DNA of 24,518 nucleotides from IMG/VR virus record IMGVR_UViG_2778261643_000010, one strand, 5' to 3'. The position numbers and the translations under genes were made by a program. The stretch is from a virus. Lineage: Duplodnaviria > Heunggongvirae > Uroviricota > Caudoviricetes. This document shows positions 10,591-19,545 of this stretch, in pieces. Numbering within the stretch: the first letter of the stretch is position 1; each line of letters starts with the position of its first letter. The notes below the pieces were generated by a model. That model was not told where the DNA came from and did no database searches. It worked only from the letters and a program-made list of their open reading frames with translations.

Positions 10591-13500
10591 CTATATTTTT
10601 CCGCCTACGCCTTTAAACTTCTCAATAAACGAGACGATTTTCTGGAAAACTGCCTGTTTTTTCGTTTTATATTGCGGATTCAACGGACTAAGTTTTGGTA
10701 ATGTTTCGTTTAATTCTGTGCCATTTTCGGTGGCGTATTCGCGTTTTAAAGACGTGCGAATATAGCGTTTTGCTGCTTCTTCATTGAGGTTTTCTTCTTT
10801 TATCAATGCTTCTGCTTCACGTTGCTGTTCGCGTTGAGCAAACGTAAAGAATGCCTCAATGATACTGGCTTTGTCTGGTAAATCATCCAGGTTCGTTTGC
10901 TGAATAAAATCGACCACCAGGCCCTCTTTCGCCCGGTTTCCCAGGCTTGAACGAATTAAGCGTTTGACCTCTTCGATCATTTCGCCCTTGCCTTTATTTT
11001 GTCTGTTGTGTTCGAAAATCAGTCCAAGGATATAATCCAGGTTTATTTCCTGAGACTTCAGCAAATCGACCTCAAAAACTACATCATCCCAGTCAGTGGT
11101 TGATTTCTCTTTTTTCTCAGCTTCTTTCTCACGGCGCTGCCAGTCGCGAATATCGTTATAGGCAGAACGATAATCCTGAATCTTGCGATCAGCAGGGAGA
11201 CGAATTGTTTGCAATTCAGCGAACTTTTCATCATCCACATAATGTTCTGCTTTGAATTTTTCTACCGCAACAGGATCGCTAAGATCGATTTGTTGCAGGG
11301 CTTTTAGCGTGGCAAATTCATCATAGTTTTGCAGGATGTTCTCGGCACGCAGGTATTCGCCAAACAGTTTAACGAAGTCTTTCTTCTCTTTTTCACTTTC
11401 AATACTGGTAGGGTCAGGGAACCGTTGTTCCAGTTCTGAAACTACTGTCATGAAGCCGCGTTTAGCTTCACCAGTGGCAGCATCAGTAAAGCCTTCCATA
11501 TACTCTGCATAACTCTTTTCTAAAACCACATTTTTGGTATTTTTGTCACCAAACAGCGTTATGGCATCAATGGTTGAGCGTTCCAGATCCCGGAACGTGA
11601 CGATATTACCGAAGGTTTTAGTCGCGTCATAAATGCGGTTGGTGCGGGAGAATGCCTGCATCAGGCCGTGAAAACGCAAGTTTTTATCGACGAATAGCGT
11701 GTTCAATGTTGGAGCGTCGAAGCCGGTTAAAAACATCCCAACGACAATTAACAGATCGATATCCTGATTTTTAACCCGTTGGGCTAAATCACGATAGTAG
11801 TTCTGAAAACCGTTACTGTCGGTACTGAAGTTAGTTTTAAAATAGCTGTTATATTCACGAATTGCAGCGTCGAGAAACTCTTTAGCACTGCTGTCCATTG
11901 CGCTGGTATCAAAAGTTTCATCGGAAATTTCACCAATGGCATTTTGTTCTTCATTAGCGGCAAAGGAGAAGATTGTCGCAACACGTAGTGGTTTATAGGT
12001 AGCAGATTTATAAGCGGCTTCCTCTTGTAACCGTTTAAACGTCGCGTAATAGGCTTTCGCGGCATCCACGCTGCTCACTGCCAGCATGGCATTAAAACCT
12101 TTGGAGCCAGGGAAAGTACGGTGGGTTTTCTGGCGGAAGTTATTCAGGATATATTGCGTAATTTCCTGAATACGCATGGGATGAAGGAACGCCTGCTGAT
12201 TTTCAGCCGCACTCAGTTTTTTCTCGTCAGTTTCTGTCTCTAAAGACTTAAACTGTGGCCGCACATCGTTGTAGTCCACCTTGAATTTAAGCACTTTTTC
12301 ATCACGAATCGCATCGGTAATAACATATGAATGCAATTCACGGCCAAATACGCTGGCGGTCGTTTCTGAGCCTAAGGCGTTTTCCGGGAAAATAGGTGTG
12401 CCGGTAAAACCAAACTGATAATAGCGTTTGAATTTCTTCTTCAGGTTTTTCTGTGCTTCTCCAAACTGGCTGCGGTGACATTCATCAAATATAAACACCA
12501 CTTGCTGATTGTATACAGGCAGGTCGCTTTCTGCTTTCATCAGGTTATTAAGTTTCTGAATAGTGGTGACGATAATTTTGTTATCGTCCTTATCCAGATT
12601 TCGTTTAAGACCTGCGGTATTTTCCGAGCCGTTGACGCTGTCTGGCGAAAAACGCTGATATTCCTTCATGGTCTGGTAATCGAGGTCTTTCCTGTCGACC
12701 ACAAAGAAAACTTTATCAATAAAGTCCAGTTCTGTTGCCAGACGCGCGGCTTTAAAGCTGGTCAGGGTTTTACCGGAACCCGTGGTGTGCCAGATATACC
12801 CACCGCTTTCCGGTTTTGACCAGTTCTTCGCTGTAAAGGAGCTCTTAATTTTCCACAGAATGCGCTCGGTGGCGGCAATCTGGTACGGTCGCATCACCAG
12901 TAGCGTCTGACTACTGTCAAAAACGCTGTAGTTCACCAGAACATTCAGCAGAGTATGTTTCTGGAAAAAGGTAGCGGTAAAATCTTTGAGGTCTTTAATC
13001 AGCGTGTTGTCTGATTTCGCCCAGTTCATGGTGAAGTCAAAACTATTTTTATCGCGCTTTGTGGTGTTGGCAAAGTAACGGGTATCGGTGCCGTTAGAAA
13101 TGACAAACAGTTGCAGATACTTAAACAGGGAATTTTCGCTGTTAAAACTCTCTTTACTGTAACGATGTATCTGGTTGAAAGCCTCACGAATCGCCACGCC
13201 GCGCTTTTTCAGTTCGATTTGCACCAGAGGCAAGCCATTAACCAGGATAGTTACGTCATAACGGTTAGCGTGAGAACCTGCCTGTTCAAACTGCTGGATA
13301 ATCTGCACTTTGTTGCGCATGAGATTCTTTTTATCTATCAGATAGATGTTCTCAAGACGCCCGTCGTCAAAAATAAAGTCGCAAATATAGTCGATATGGA
13401 TTTTACGGGTCTTATCCAGAATGCCATCGCTCGGGTTGTCCAGATACTGCTCCGTGAAACGCCGCCACTCGCTGTCATTAAACACCACACCATTGAGGCT

Positions 13501-13707
13501 CTGAAGCTGTTCCCGAACATTGGACAGCATAGCCGACTGAGATTTTACGGATATAAATTCATAGCCCTGATTCCGCAGGTCCTGAATCAGTTCACGTTCC
13601 AGGTCCGATTCGCTCTGGTAGCTGTCGCCTGTTGGCTCAGCTTTGATGTACTTATCAAGGACGATAAAGTTATTGGATTCAGCAATAGTGTGTGTCTGAT
13701 GAGTCAT
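10591..13707 (-). CDS. hsdR: Type I restriction enzyme R subunit (HsdR), EcoR124-family (Type IC)
   Basis: Walker A motif [11 protein letters not shown] and DEAD-like [10 protein letters not shown] are present. The ORF track begins at 13767, but ATG 13707 ([11 protein letters not shown]) has an AAGGA ribosome-binding site and gives about 1038 aa, the length I recall for EcoR124I HsdR. Confidence 0.9.
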
Positions 13708-13828
13708 AGCGCATCCTTTGTGCCGTCTGGCAAGGGCCGGAAGGGAGTTAAGGGTGACTTCCGGCACGTAAAAAATAGTCTATATACAGACCGGATGTTA
13801 AGGTGGTCCGGTCGGTAGCAATGGTCAA

Positions 13829-15085
13829 TTAATTACTGACAGTTTCAGGTTTCGGGAAACTGAACAGTAAGTCACGATAGTACTCGTATTGTTTCTGGCG
13901 CAACTCGATTTCACGCGGGAGACCTTCGGTGATGGAGTTGGTCAGGGTGTCGAATTTATCGAGCAGAGCAGATATTCGCTCTTGTTTCTGTTTATCAGGC
14001 AATGGCACTGGTAATGTTTTTATAATATCTGCATTCAAGTTACTGACCGACCCGCTATTGATTTTACTTTCCCAATAATTTTTCACCTTTTTTGATGAAA
14101 GATAGTGATACAGATAATCAGCATTTAATTTTTCACCAAAATTGCTGATTGATGCCCATCCATCATGGATAGCTCCGGTTATCCTTAAAATATATGGTCT
14201 GCCAAAGCTCATAGAGTTAGAAATGACGAAATCACCGGGGTTCAAGATTCGCGATTTTTGGGCACCCTCTGCAGTTATTTTTTGTAAGGTTTTGTCAATG
14301 TATTTAGAGCCGGGGATAGTATCTCCGATTTTAATCCATGGGATACCATTTCCTTGTTCAGTAAGATAATTAACAATTGGCCTGGGGGATGCCCCACGTT
14401 GTATTTTGGCTACTTCTCCCAATGCCTTCCACTCAACCTCACCCTCTTTAAAACTCAGCAACTGGTCGCGATAGTAGTTGTACTGTTTTTTACGCATGTT
14501 AAGCTCAGCGGTAAGCTCAGCGGTAAGTGCAGTAAATTTGTCCAGAATCCGAACGATTTCAGACTGGATGGCGAGGGATTTTTCCGGATTATCCGGGCAG
14601 GGAATTGGGATGAGTAGTTTTGACATCAATGCATTTGAGCTTAGATTCGGTTGTGCTCCGCCCCCGGCGAGGATATAAATAGTCTCTGTATTTAACAATA
14701 AAAAATGGTATAAATAATTATTGTTTAGAATATTTTCTTTGGGTATGAATTTTCCAACCCGTTGGTTAAGATAACATTTTGTTCCTTTTTTATAAATTCC
14801 CACTTTTCCTGTAGTGGCACCTGACATTGCAATCAATATATTTCCCATAGATACCTCAAAGGAGGATAAATCTTCCTTGTAATCATTTAGTGAAAAGTAT
14901 TTCACCTCATCTAAGTCAACATTAAATCCATCTATATTTGTGATTCTAACTATCGGTAACCCAGTTTCTTTAAATAAGCTGCTTTTAAATGCAAATCCAT
15001 TTTTAAAATCACAAACATCCTTCAAGGGTTTCCACTCAACCTCAACCCCATCCAGCAATTTTTCCAGATAACTCAACTCGCTCAT
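13829..15085 (-). CDS. hsdS: Type I R-M specificity subunit (HsdS) with two target-recognition domains and a central TAEL-repeat region
   Basis: It has the conserved central block [54 protein letters not shown] and a conserved C-terminal block. The start overlaps the hsdM stop (ATGA). Confidence 0.9.
14501..14536. repeat. Two perfect 12-bp tandem repeats (AAGCTCAGCGGT) plus a degenerate third unit, encoding LTAEL-TAEL in hsdS
   Basis: Direct reading of 14501-14512 and 14513-14524, then the diverged unit AAGTGCAGTAAA. Confidence 0.85.
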
Positions 15086-16638
15086 TTCTGCACCTCGCAG
15101 CCTTCAATTTCAGCCACAATCGCATCAATATCTTTACGCAACTGGTCGATTTTGCTGACCGTGATTTTCAGCTCTGCATTCAACTCAGCGATATCGATAA
15201 TTTCGCGAGTATCTTTCGCTTCAACATAGCTGCTCACCGACAGGTTATAGTCATTAGCAACAACGGTCTCAAACGCGACTGATTTCGCCAGATGAGCAAC
15301 ATCTTCCTTGCTGGCAAATACCTGCATAATCTGTTCGATATGGGCATCGGTCAGGATATTGTTGTTGGTCTCTTTTTTGAATAGTTCGCTGGCGTCAATA
15401 AACTGAACTTTTGTATCTGTTTTATGTTTAGACAACACCAGAATGTTTACGGCAATGGTGGTGCCAAAGAACAGGTTCGGTGCCAGTGAAATCACGGTTT
15501 CGACATAGTTATTATCAACCAGATACTGACGGATTTTCTGCTCCGCGCCGCCACGGTAAAAAATACCCGGGAAGCAAACAATCGCAGCACGACCTTTGGC
15601 AGAAAGATAGTTCAGCGCATGTAGTACAAAGGCGAAGTCAGCTTTTGATTTGGGGGCCAGAACGCCAGCCGGGGCAAAACGTTCATCGTTAATCAGCGTC
15701 GGGTCATCGCTGCCAATCCATTTCACCGAATACGGCGGGTTAGAAACGATGGCATCAAACGGTTTTTCATCTCTGAAGTGTGGTTCAGTCAGCGTATTGC
15801 CCAGCTTGATATCAAACTTGTCGTAGTTGATGTTGTGCAAAAACATGTTCATACGCGCCAGGTTATAGGTCGTATGGTTGATTTCCTGACCAAAAAAACC
15901 TTCTTCGATGATATGGTCATCAAACTGTTTTTTAGCCTGCAACAACAGCGAACCGGAGCCTGCTGCCGGGTCGTAGATTTTGTTAACGTGGGTCTGCCCG
16001 TGCATAGCCAGTTGTGCAATCAGCTTAGAGACGTGCTGCGGTGTAAAGAACTCGCCGCCGGACTTACCGGCATTCGCGGCATAGTTAGAAATCAGGAACT
16101 CATAGGCGTCACCGAACAGATCAATCTGATGTTCGGTGAAGTCACCAAGTTTTAACCCTTCAACCCCTTTCAGAACCGCAGCCAGGCGGGCATTTTTATC
16201 TTTAACGGTGTTACCCAGGCGGTTACTGGTGGTATCGAAATCAGCAAACAAACCTTTGATGTCTGCTTCTGAAGGGTAGCCGTAAGCAGAACTTTCGATA
16301 GCAACGAAGATACTGTTTAAATCTGCATTCAGTCTGTCATTGGTATTTGCTTTCGCAGCTACGTTGCAGAAAAGCTGGCTTGGGTAGATGAAGTAGCCTT
16401 TGGTTTTGATGGCATCGTCTTTAATGTCATCAGTAATTACGCTGTCATCCAGTGCTGCATAACAGATGCTGTCATCATCGGCTTCCATATAGCTGGAAAA
16501 ATTTTCGCTGATAAAACGATAAAAAAGCGCGCCCAGAACGTACTGCTTAAAATCCCATCCATCGACTGAACCCCTGACATCGTTAGCAATTTGCCAGATC
16601 TGGCGATGAAGTTCTGCACGTTGTTGAATACTTGTCAT
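15082..16638 (-). CDS. hsdM: Type I R-M N6-adenine DNA methyltransferase (HsdM)
   Basis: Contains the AdoMet-binding motif [11 protein letters not shown] and the catalytic motif VSNPPYS. Confidence 0.9.
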
Positions 16639-16768
16639 TTTCTTCCACTTATTTCAGGCTTAAGTAATTGGCGGTGATTCTACAGCAACTTTGATGCTTT
16701 AGCAGTTCGGACATTAGGCAACGAATGACCTAATTAGAGCTTTTTGGAAAAGCGGTATTGTCGGTGCG

Positions 16769-16993
16769 ATGATAGCTATGTTTGGGTTCGCGATGGTGCA
16801 ATACAATGACGGTGAAAAGGTAAGCATCCAGTCTGATGGCTGGTATGGGCTGGATAGCCTGCAAAAAACCGCAGATAAAGCCTGTCAGCAATATGGAAAG
16901 TCTAAAGCCGTATATCAGCATAGCGCGAACGCTAATCCACATCTCGCGCCCGGCACGGGCGTTCAGAACACTATTTGGAAATGCGAACCATAA
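16769..16993 (+). CDS. Hypothetical small protein (74 aa)
   Basis: ORF only; no clear ribosome-binding site. It overlaps an antisense ORF (16730-16942), so the coding status is uncertain. Confidence 0.25.
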   Translation: MIAMFGFAMVQYNDGEKVSIQSDGWYGLDSLQKTADKACQQYGKSKAVYQHSANANPHLAPGTGVQNTIWKCEP

Positions 16994-17176
16994 CGCAGGT
17001 TGGCTTTTTACATCTTGGGCCGAATACTGATTCCGCGCTAAGTTGTTTGTGCGGAAGTGACACTGTGGAGCTTAGAAATAGTAAATACTGGTGGGCAACA
17101 AATTGAGCCTTCACACGCTCACCAGCACACACAAAAAATGGTTAAACAGCAAGGGAATTAATATCTCAGCGCGACA

Positions 17177-17314
17177 TTAAATAAGCCAGCGCACGCCTCT
17201 GTTTATCACTGACTTGAAAAACCATATCAGAACCACGATGAAGACAATCGCCAGCACTTGGCTAAGAACAGGCGCATTTAAAAATGCACTTAGAAACTGA
17301 AAAAATACAATCAT
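17177..17314 (-). CDS. Candidate small membrane protein (45 aa, MIVFFQFLSAFLNAPVLSQVLAIVFIVVLIWFFKSVINRGVRWLI)
   Basis: Has GAGGA eight nt upstream of the ATG and is strongly hydrophobic. It lies in an otherwise gene-poor spacer. Confidence 0.3.
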   Translation of the reverse strand: MIVFFQFLSAFLNAPVLSQVLAIVFIVVLIWFFKSVINRGVRWLI

Positions 17315-17782
17315 CAGGGTAATCCTCGTCAAATGTAAAGCTGTGTGCTCTCACGTTGACGTAGAAACCCAACCTCTATATAGTTGGATTCGGTGAAAGA
17401 AAGTCGTTAACGTGAACTTACGGCACATGTTTTCGGTATAAAAATCAGGGAACTGTGAATTCCTTGATGTAGTTGGGGCCTGTAATGCAGGCCCTATCTA
17501 TTAATGTCATGATTACATCTCAAATTTTCTCCTTATCATTATTATTTAATAAAATTCAATTAATAAAATATCCATTTCCTGTGTGTGCAAACACAGTATG
17601 AGGAAAATGGCCTCGTTGCAAGTGCATAACTTTGTGGATAACTCTGAAGGCGAATTTACATTTCGGCGCACCGCAAGCCAGATAAGCTGTGCGCAAAAAG
17701 CAATGGGGTGAGAAAAAAACTTTGAAGATATTGCGGCGACTAAATAATAGCCGTTATTCAATTATTCTGGATGGGATTTAAT

Positions 17783-18022
17783 ATGAACGAATGGAACATA
17801 GCAGCCAAAAGCCAGGAAGAAAGGAATAAAGTTAACGTTGACCTGGCTGCCAGGGGGGTTGCCTACAAAGAGCGATTGAACATACCTGTCATAGCTGAAC
17901 AGGTAGCCCGCGAGCAACCAGAGAATCTGCGCACCTATTTCATGGAACGTCTACGGCACTACCGGCAGTTAAGCCTCCAGTTGCCAAAAGGGAACGATCC
18001 GGCATATCAGAAAACAGAATAG
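17783..18022 (+). CDS. hot: Homolog of DNA polymerase III theta subunit (HolE-like; P1 Hot-like)
   Basis: [42 protein letters not shown] closely parallels E. coli theta as I remember it. The annotated ORF starts at 17771; ATG 17783 is preferred. Confidence 0.75.
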
Positions 18023-18033
18023 TTGTTAGGCTA

Positions 18034-18396
18034 TTACGCAATGCCCGCGCCATTCATAGCGGGTTTTAAGCCATATTCACCGTTGTAGAAATTACTCATG
18101 TTCCATTCATTGGGAAGCTCTTTTCTGTCCAATGTATAGTGGCGTACGATATAACGATCTTCATCTTCTTCGATGGACAGGCGGACATAGCCAATGTGAA
18201 TTACCGATACGGGCGGCGTCCGTATTGCATAGATGTCGCGGAGATATACCGGTAGCTCGACAAATGCGTCAGGTGCATCTGTGATGCTCATTTTTTCACA
18301 GTATTCATATAACGCATCGTTGATATCGTTAAGAGATTCATGATCGTATATTTCCAGGTAATTACCGCGATCGCGATGGTACTCGATTTTAGCCAT
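18034..18396 (-). CDS. Hypothetical protein (120 aa)
   Basis: ORF whose start abuts the stop of the upstream gene at 18397, so the two form an operon. Confidence 0.5.
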   Translation of the reverse strand: MAKIEYHRDRGNYLEIYDHESLNDINDALYEYCEKMSITDAPDAFVELPVYLRDIYAIRTPPVSVIHIGYVRLSIEEDEDRYIVRHYTLDRKELPNEWNMSNFYNGEYGLKPAMNGAGIA

Positions 18397-18981
18397 TCAA
18401 AATCCCCTGTTATCGTTTTGCATTTCTCTAATCCGGTTCAGAACTACTTCATGCTGGGCTTGGATAGCGGCTTTTTCGTTTTCAAGTCGGGCAATAGACA
18501 TCTCTAATTCTTTGCTGTACCAGGCGAGTTGGGCCAGGTTCATCCGGTTGTGGTCGAGAGTTGGAGACACTTCGACGCGATCCCTTTCTTCCTGCTTTAA
18601 TGAGAAGAGATTCATCTCATCCCTAGAGGAAAATTCAGCAACAATTTCTTGTTGATGATCCGGTCGCTGCGGCATCCTCGCCAGTATAAATGGCGGTTCT
18701 TTTGAAAACATGAATGTCGGTTCATAACGTGTTTTTACCCAGCTTGCCTGCTGTCTTTCGGCAAGTTCACAGGCTTCATCATAGTTATTTGCCAAACCAA
18801 GCACGGATGGACGGTCCCACGCCCCACCATTCAGACAATAAACTACAATTTTCCCGTCAGGTTGTGTAACCCCATATGGATGGTCCCACCAGGCGTCCAA
18901 CTGAGCTTTAGAGCGTTTCTCGTTAGGAGTGCAGTCAAAATTTTTGGGCAATACAGGATCGAGAGGAATGCGGGCAGGCAT
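18397..18981 (-). CDS. Hypothetical protein (194 aa), divergent from humD
   Basis: ORF with a C-terminal predicted coiled coil. Confidence 0.5.
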   Translation of the reverse strand: MPARIPLDPVLPKNFDCTPNEKRSKAQLDAWWDHPYGVTQPDGKIVVYCLNGGAWDRPSVLGLANNYDEACELAERQQASWVKTRYEPTFMFSKEPPFILARMPQRPDHQQEIVAEFSSRDEMNLFSLKQEERDRVEVSPTLDHNRMNLAQLAWYSKELEMSIARLENEKAAIQAQHEVVLNRIREMQNDNRGF

Positions 18982-19116
18982 AGCTAATTCCTTATTAACT
19001 GATTGGCAACGAGGTTACGCTGATCCGTTGGTGATGAATAGTAGCAAAGCGCACAAAATCATCTGCGGTGGTTGATGTACATAACGCGTTTGCACCAAAG
19101 GTGTCTCTTTAATGTA

Positions 19117-19136
19117 TGCTGTATAAATGAACAGTA
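19117..19136. promoter_or_regulatory. LexA (SOS) box TGCTGTATAAATGAACAGTA
   Basis: A perfect CTGT-N8-ACAG core overlapping a TATAAA -10-like hexamer, 20 bp upstream of the humD start. Confidence 0.75.
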
Positions 19137-19155
19137 TTATTGAGGTGAAAACGCT

Positions 19156-19545
19156 ATGGGCTTCCCTTCTCCTGCGGCGGATTATGTTGAAAGCAGAATT
19201 TCTCTTGATCAGCAACTAATCAGGCATCCATCAGCGACCTACTTCATGCGGGCGGCAGACAGCCATCACCGCGAGGGAATATTGCAGGGTGCTTTGCTGG
19301 TGGTTGATTCTTCGCTTACTCCAGTTGATGGTTCGCTGCTTGTGTGCGCTATGGAGGGTGAATATCGCATAAAGAGATACCGAAAGTATCCGCGCCAGCA
19401 CCTGGAGGATTTAAGCACCGGGAAGAAAGAGGCGTTACCAGTAGATGACGATGGTTACACGGGCAGTAATGCTGTTTTTGGTGTGATCACTCATGTCATC
19501 AATGATGCCCGAAGTGGGGAATTTGATGATTGTCCGGTTATTTAA
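19156..19545 (+). CDS. humD: UmuD'-like S24 peptidase-fold protein
   Basis: The N-terminus GFPSPAADYVE...LIRHPSATYF is the signature of the UmuD/MucA/ImpA family. GAGGTG ribosome-binding site. Confidence 0.8.
   Translation: MGFPSPAADYVESRISLDQQLIRHPSATYFMRAADSHHREGILQGALLVVDSSLTPVDGSLLVCAMEGEYRIKRYRKYPRQHLEDLSTGKKEALPVDDDGYTGSNAVFGVITHVINDARSGEFDDCPVI

Follow-up and report, generated by a model that had tools for sequence, protein, structure and literature searches.

Orthologues of P1 lxr and P7 upf93.6 between hot and humD in a P1-family phage-plasmid

Phage P1 has, beside humD, the gene lxr (P1_gp102), whose product of 190 amino acids is annotated as a 'LexA regulated function', and at the same position in P7 there are two open reading frames (ORFs), upf94.2 (585 bp) and upf93.6 (357 bp), that are entered as 'unknown protein function'. 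Further afield, small modulators of the SOS response, PsiB and those of the ImpC/DinI type, are encoded beside plasmid umuD-like genes, and Delver and Belogurov are said to have described in 1997 the CUP-controlled leading-region genes of IncN plasmids that constitute the ard/ccg regulon. The DNA considered here, IMG/VR record IMGVR_UViG_2778261643_000010 (24,518 nucleotides from a member of the Caudoviricetes; the whole of it is called the window below), is that of a P1-family phage-plasmid, and two adjoining genes between its hot and humD, for proteins of 194 and 120 amino acids, are the counterparts of those in P1 and P7. The 194-amino-acid gene is orthologous to P1 lxr and P7 upf94.2, and the 120-amino-acid gene is P7 upf93.6, which is absent from P1.

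The explanation of the whole that seems best, and it is a tentative one, joins this identity to three further propositions: that the two are independent accessory genes, that the LexA box near them is owned by humD, and that their products have an establishment-type role exercised by binding other proteins.

Identity with the P1 and P7 genes

The identity is settled by megablast, the deposited P1 and P7 annotations and a three-way alignment. Across the region the window is 97% identical to P7 in nucleotide sequence, and its Lxr has 93% amino-acid identity to the P1-type protein of 190 residues (P0004). P1 Lxr and P7 Upf94.2 are thus matched at 93–97% identity, and their position, their orientation with respect to humD and the spacer's LexA box are all the same. 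The differences from P1 are that the final ~15 residues of Lxr diverge (…EMQNDNRGF versus …EVQNG) and that the ~390 bp holding upf93.6 are missing, so that nothing corresponds in P1 to the upf93.6 that follows lxr in the window. P7 Upf93.6 is identical to its window counterpart bar a few residues before position 110, but its C-terminal tail past that residue is different; the junction of upf94.2 with upf93.6 is the same, and where P7 has IS903 in place of hot, the window has hot intact. Compared with P1 and P7, the fullest arrangement, hot-upf93.6-lxr-[LexA box]-humD, is that of the window, and positions 16600-19200 are 100% identical to the Escherichia coli plasmid NZ_CP122822.1. Lxr is phrog_6164 (E 6.2e-135 over residues 1-194) and Upf93.6 is phrog_5797 (E 9.5e-77), and in PHROG the function of each is given as unknown.

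Both ORFs are real genes rather than chance ones, because homologues preserve their frames and the ratio of nonsynonymous to synonymous substitution rates in comparison with P7 is 0.23 for lxr and 0.31 for upf93.6 (on few substitutions). The 104 Lxr homologues collected keep the frame intact to ~50% amino-acid identity in many genera, and those of Upf93.6 keep it down to ~37%. An earlier note made from the window sequence had described two coupled genes between hot and humD, divergent from humD and devoid of recognizable motifs, and this description stands. The lxr stop codon TGA (18399-18397) abuts the upf93.6 ATG (18396-18394), which makes translational coupling from lxr to upf93.6 possible, and both genes are on the minus strand with transcription leftwards, away from humD. 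Neither Lxr nor Upf93.6 has a significant match in Pfam or NCBIfam, no family among the PADLOC-DB v2 hidden Markov models was matched by either at E<=1, sequence-profile searches of the PDB with both gave nothing below E 0.07, and the AlphaFold models of the two have no convincing structural neighbour in the PDB or among viral structures.

What does not survive from the earlier note is the novelty of the operon. It was right that P1 holds a LexA-regulated gene at this position, as the annotation goes, and had not recognized that the 194-amino-acid gene is itself that lxr. The pair is already known as catalogued ORFs (P1 lxr; P7 upf94.2 and upf93.6) that are functionally uncharacterized: a search of the literature found no paper characterizing any of the three, and P1 lxr owes its name solely to the nearby LexA box, its function being only annotated. 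With CRISPR interference, lxr was dispensable for P1 lytic growth (PMC10695390).

The LexA box and the control of lxr

The window has a single exact CTGT-N8-ACAG site (19119-19134; chance expectation 0.23), and it is in the lxr-humD spacer, at a distance of 19 nt from the start codon of humD and of 135 nt from that of lxr. P1 and P7 annotate the box differently, as 'in the regulatory region of lxr and humD' in P1 and as 'regulation of humD expression', that is of humD alone, in P7. That lxr is truly regulated by LexA and inducible by damage, sharing its control with humD, with the pair as an SOS-induced function, would agree with the P1 annotation, with the position of the sole box of the window in the spacer and with the adjacency of Lxr homologues to umuD-like genes in several lineages, but it is an unlikely reading. 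Of 65 viral contigs with an lxr homologue, all 52 with an adjacent humD have a box in the 400 bp upstream of lxr, and the 13 others have none there. RCS47 and D6 have neither lxr nor upf93.6, yet TACTGTATGAATAAACAGTA is kept just before their humD. From this comparison we conclude that the LexA box is the operator of humD. Because the box stays with humD, with or without lxr, and is not found upstream of lxr otherwise, direct LexA control of lxr is unsupported by the comparative evidence, and any SOS control is unlikely to be direct. The far greater distance of the box from lxr than from humD, its assignment in P7 to humD only, and the lack of a promoter-like site overlapping the box on the lxr strand count in the same direction, and the earlier suggestion that the pair is damage-responsive is not supported.

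The converse arrangement is seen in an Escherichia albertii element (L079), where lxr is divergent from phd-doc and there is neither humD nor LexA box. The ~90 bp next to lxr in the window are partly conserved there, which suggests a proximal promoter of its own for lxr, probably within ~90 bp of the start codon. The promoter scan gave no sigma-70-like site in the lxr-humD spacer, and no second box, at one mismatch, is present in its lxr-proximal part. Neither LexA boxes nor SOS boxes of the alpha type are conserved ahead of the genes for Lxr homologues, no P1 C1 operator is near lxr, and no Rfam family has a match in the window.

A Salmonella-type phage-plasmid has another layout (L171, 4603-5692), in which lxr is followed by a convergent, truncated gene for a HumD-like protein of 109 amino acids; a near-consensus LexA box is on the far side of the latter gene, and a macro-domain-like protein of 229 amino acids is encoded next.

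Table 1. Coordinates of the two genes, their signals and the flanking genes in the window
Feature	Position	Strand	Basis or remark
hot	17771-18022		Flank; Pfam DNA_pol3_theta, E 2.6e-32
upf93.6 orthologue, 120 amino acids	18034..18396	(-)	ORF list, P7 annotation, phrog_5797
TGA-ATG junction	18394..18399	(-)	Read from sequence; identical in P7
lxr orthologue (P7 upf94.2), 194 amino acids	18397..18981	(-)	ORF list, P1/P7 alignment, phrog_6164
upf93.6 Shine-Dalgarno, GGGGA	18403..18407	(-)	6 nt before ATG, within lxr 3′ end
lxr-proximal upstream block	18982..19075	(-)	Partly conserved in E. albertii element; candidate lxr promoter site
lxr Shine-Dalgarno, AAGGA	18989..18993	(-)	8 nt before lxr ATG
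LexA box, TGCTGTATAAATGAACAGTA	19117..19136	(.)	Predicted humD operator; context for, not part of, lxr unit
humD	19156-19545		Flank; Pfam Peptidase_S24

Past humD are phd, doc, the gene for a DUF968 protein (pdcB) and lpa. On the other side, upstream of hot and within the pmgT-humD variable region, is a complete type I restriction-modification system (10591-16638, minus strand; hsdR of 1058, hsdS of 418 and hsdM of 518 amino acids), so that the phage-plasmid carries a defence system in a region where P1 is without hsd genes. The ~1.1 kb from hsdM to hot (16639-17770) have short ORFs only and are the counterpart of the P1 upfM/N/O and late-promoter LPhot region, with GAAGATATT as the -22 element of LPhot in the window and AAGTTACTT in P1.

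Two families that move independently

Lxr is an acidic protein (isoelectric point, pI, 5.3; 5.3-5.4 for the protein and its N-terminal domain) with a conserved N-terminal domain, Lxr-N, of ~125 amino acids (about residues 1-130). Its invariant residues include W31-W32-D33, C49-L50-N51-G52-G53, D56-R57 and R85, and Q105-R106-P107-D108 is highly conserved, P107 being invariant and the others nearly so. In the AlphaFold2 model, which has a mean predicted local distance difference test (pLDDT) score of 87, two beta3-alpha units are followed by a long helix, 149-191. The C-terminal part, ~60 residues, is confined to the P1-like and some Klebsiella plasmid versions, and its long helix is probably, on the model, a coiled-coil oligomerization arm. 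Lxr-N alone makes up a protein of ~130 amino acids on many proteobacterial plasmids and conjugative elements, and the Lxr profile, searched exhaustively with HMMER, gave 478 clusters at 50% identity. Lxr-N is a large family without a Pfam entry on plasmids, conjugative elements and phage-plasmids of alpha-, beta- and gamma-proteobacteria.

Many of the remote Lxr-N homologues have an N-terminal helical extension of ~60 amino acids, or more unannotated sequence. The helical module (K..AK....HS.ALE..A...GF.SWH.L), present in P0151-P0206 and other remote homologues, is covered by Pfam solely as the N-terminus of Glyoxalase_8. A Pfam scan of 81 remote homologues, fused or longer, matched this Glyoxalase_8 N-terminal module in seven and a PaaA2-like segment in one, and gave no informative fusion domain otherwise; the one (P0162) has its PaaA2-like 'stability determinant' segment between the helical module and the Lxr-N domain. 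Upf93.6, also acidic (pI 4.7), is an alpha/beta protein distinct from Lxr.

The two families are very unevenly represented, tblastn against PLSDB having found Lxr homologues on 898 plasmids and those of Upf93.6 on 185. The locus is matched in 251 of 5,426 complete E. coli genomes (~5%), 100 of them with both genes, and 264 of the 267 places concerned are on plasmids. Within the IMG/VR viral contigs that have an lxr homologue, upf93.6 is directly downstream in 36 of 65, and lxr is without it in P1 and in the most abundant variant, of 191 amino acids (L076). A P1-like contig of Serratia silvae has homologues of both genes ~39 kb apart, with the Lxr-N gene beside rdgC-like and dam genes and the Upf93.6 homologue directly after phd-doc. 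Elsewhere what precedes the Upf93.6 homologue is an ORF of 89 amino acids (IncN plasmids), a protein of 320 (a Salmonella IncI-like plasmid) or an Mrr-like gene (Yersinia). No hidden relation to Lxr was found for IncN orf89, which was compared with the Lxr C-terminal region, for the IncI-like upstream protein or for a Yersinia neighbour of 194 amino acids, and none to Upf93.6 was found for an R46 protein of 114 amino acids.

The pairing does recur, at 55-68% identity, in a Salmonella lineage that has diverged, where a gap of 15 bp separates the two and there is a third small gene; in the Salmonella plasmid AnCo3 the 15-bp gap replaces the TGA-ATG junction, and an AnCo3 protein of 88 amino acids has no detected relation to HumD. 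The adjacency of lxr and upf93.6 is then recurrent and not obligate, a lineage-specific operon of independently moving families, and since the two genes occur independently, the term 'module' used of them in the earlier note is too strong. The literature on P1-like phage-plasmids counts this interval among the variable regions (PMC9603915; PMC6906374). In L123 (4579-5200) an lxr variant of 193 amino acids has unrelated DNA, including a minus-strand ORF of 183 amino acids, beginning at its stop codon, with upf93.6 and hot both replaced, and this replacement from the stop codon onwards points to the lxr 3′ end as a recombination breakpoint.

Neighbour genes were clustered for 61 Lxr-N loci, of which 57 came from scanning the GTDB species genomes and four had been obtained before. 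A TraG-like coupling protein is encoded at 26 of the 61, often with traD-traG-nuclease-lxrN as the gene order; an SNase-like nuclease is encoded at nine, and an ArdC-like gene is present at six. At least three independent arrangements place Lxr-N beside umuD-like genes; on sphingomonad plasmids umuC and umuD are adjacent and convergent to it, with an alpha-type SOS box before umuD. A Fic/VbhA toxin-antitoxin pair is close by on sphingomonad and Pseudomonas plasmids, echoing phd-doc in the window, and Pseudomonas plasmids also have a tight operon in which Lxr-N is preceded by a gene for a protein of 67 amino acids and is itself directly upstream of a serine resolvase gene. The SNase-like nuclease and the resolvase close to it raise the speculative idea that Lxr-N is the counterpart of RK2 ParC. 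The protein of 67 amino acids (MKLEDLTGDDRTLVVVALQAL...) is encoded near Lxr-N genes in seven loci (among them L003-L006, 5787-7040, of Pseudomonas and L012, 5669-6141, of Klebsiella) and is absent from the window. In the Klebsiella locus its gene is followed, with a 4-bp overlap, by that for a protein of 90 amino acids that has weak Aca2/YdaS-like helix-turn-helix matches, a layout that resembles an anti-defence locus.

In IncN plasmids the homologue of Upf93.6, with 37% identity, is encoded at the end of a CUP-repeat-driven operon, DUF932-ssb-TrfB/ArdK-like-orf89-orf115, which lies in the leading region just before ccgAII. In one of these plasmids (NZ_OU342903.1; L011, 1035-8099) the CUP repeat is present six times, in each case with a TTGACT-17-TATACT promoter, ahead of successive operons of the leading region, among them the one that ends with the gene for the Upf93.6 homologue. 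R46 has no Upf93.6 homologue, and in the same region has mucAB among ard genes. The setting in a leading or early region with ssb and ard genes holds for the homologues only, the neighbours in the window being hot, humD and phd-doc. Orphan methylases are also among the neighbours in the gene pool of both families, besides umuD/umuDC, Fic/Doc, ArdC and ssb. A metagenomic P1-like contig (L077, 68-745) has just past doc, and three genes from lxr, a Tad2-like gene (PF11195, anti-Thoeris family) and a dUTPase gene; the former suggests that this part of P1-like genomes collects anti-defence cargo.

Possible roles of the two proteins

Because of the neighbour genes of their homologues, both families would appear to be part of the gene pool of mobile elements that serves establishment and the tolerance of DNA damage. 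With low confidence, and from context only, both proteins may be small protein-binding factors concerned with establishment, anti-defence or modulation of the SOS response. The mechanism proposed is that Lxr and Upf93.6 would bind host proteins of DNA-damage tolerance and recombination, or of defence, rather than DNA. Lxr would oligomerize via its C-terminal helix, and its conserved acidic and aromatic N-domain would bind a host or element protein of the UmuD′/RecA/replisome set. Upf93.6 would act apart from Lxr, by inhibiting some host function on early entry. Lxr may be the better candidate for a link of the UmuD′/RecA type and Upf93.6 for an anti-defence-like role on early entry, an apportioning that is again of low confidence. 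A bolder version, in which Lxr-N is a widespread domain with neither Pfam family nor solved relative that works with UmuD′-type translesion synthesis or with RecA and the SOS response, and Upf93.6 is a new early-entry anti-defence protein of phage-plasmids and IncN leading regions, is rather doubtful.

The known systems set out at the start resemble the present one in part. Like the modulators of the ImpC/DinI type and PsiB, Lxr is a small accessory protein encoded repeatedly beside umuD or umuDC homologues on mobile elements, but it has no detected sequence or fold similarity to any solved structure, a set that would take in these modulators, and the likeness is positional only. With the CUP-controlled genes of IncN plasmids the connection is that the 37%-identical Upf93.6 homologue ends an operon driven by CUP repeats with DUF932, ssb and a TrfB/ArdK-like gene, but in sequence it is unrelated to ArdA, ArdB and the Ccg proteins, and we know of no anti-restriction activity for it. 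Homology to characterized anti-defence proteins (ArdA/B/C, PsiB, Ocr, Acr and others) was not found for the pair by Pfam, PDB-sequence or fold match. The earlier idea of a defence or anti-defence function accordingly divides, defence being unsupported, with no match in PADLOC, and anti-defence possible from context.

Several points weigh against a protein-binding establishment role of this kind. The AlphaFold2 model of Upf93.6 is of moderate confidence only (pLDDT 72), the neighbourhoods are heterogeneous with many uncharacterized neighbours, and the umuD-like association is counted from three or four arrangements that are independent of each other, for which there is no background statistic. 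In addition lxr and humD share a divergent control region, so that LexA could still affect lxr.

A different role for Lxr, as a sequence-specific DNA-binding regulator with tandem AP2-like beta3-alpha units and a coiled-coil dimer, and with upf93.6 as regulated cargo, is quite improbable. It has in its favor the NCBI product name of the family, 'DNA-binding protein', local fold matches to domains of the AP2/ERF, integrase arm-binding and homing-endonuclease types, the location directly upstream of the serine resolvase gene in Pseudomonas plasmids, and the homologue with a PaaA2-like antitoxin segment. But no Pfam or NCBIfam model finds a DNA-binding domain in Lxr, the similarity detected being local, AP2-like and sub-threshold, and the fold scores are under any usual threshold. 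Next to the AP2/ERF and integrase arm-type fold, a three-stranded sheet and a helix, Lxr scores far below the level of homology, and a conserved basic DNA-contact surface is not evident in its sequence. No supporting model could be traced for the NCBI name, which has no detectable basis, and the acidity of Lxr, and of Upf93.6 too, argues against it. A reading of the pair as a type II toxin-antitoxin module or as one of abortive infection (defence), as two small abutting genes in a variable region near a type I restriction-modification system and phd-doc could suggest, is highly improbable given that neither PADLOC nor any Pfam toxin-antitoxin family is matched and that each gene is common alone (lxr in P1, upf93.6 homologues behind unrelated genes), since such independent distributions are not to be expected of a toxin and its cognate antitoxin.

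Returning to the preferred combination of accessory genes with a protein-binding role in establishment, its genes are two catalogued hypothetical ones that have been re-identified, and this is not a discovery. 'LexA-regulated function', the label of lxr since the annotation of the P1 genome, is no guide to damage-inducibility. What is most useful here is that two labels that mislead, 'LexA-regulated' and 'DNA-binding', are corrected and that the large Lxr-N family is recognized. If it is true that either protein modulates SOS mutagenesis or host defence, this would bear on the establishment of resistance-carrying P1-like phage-plasmids.
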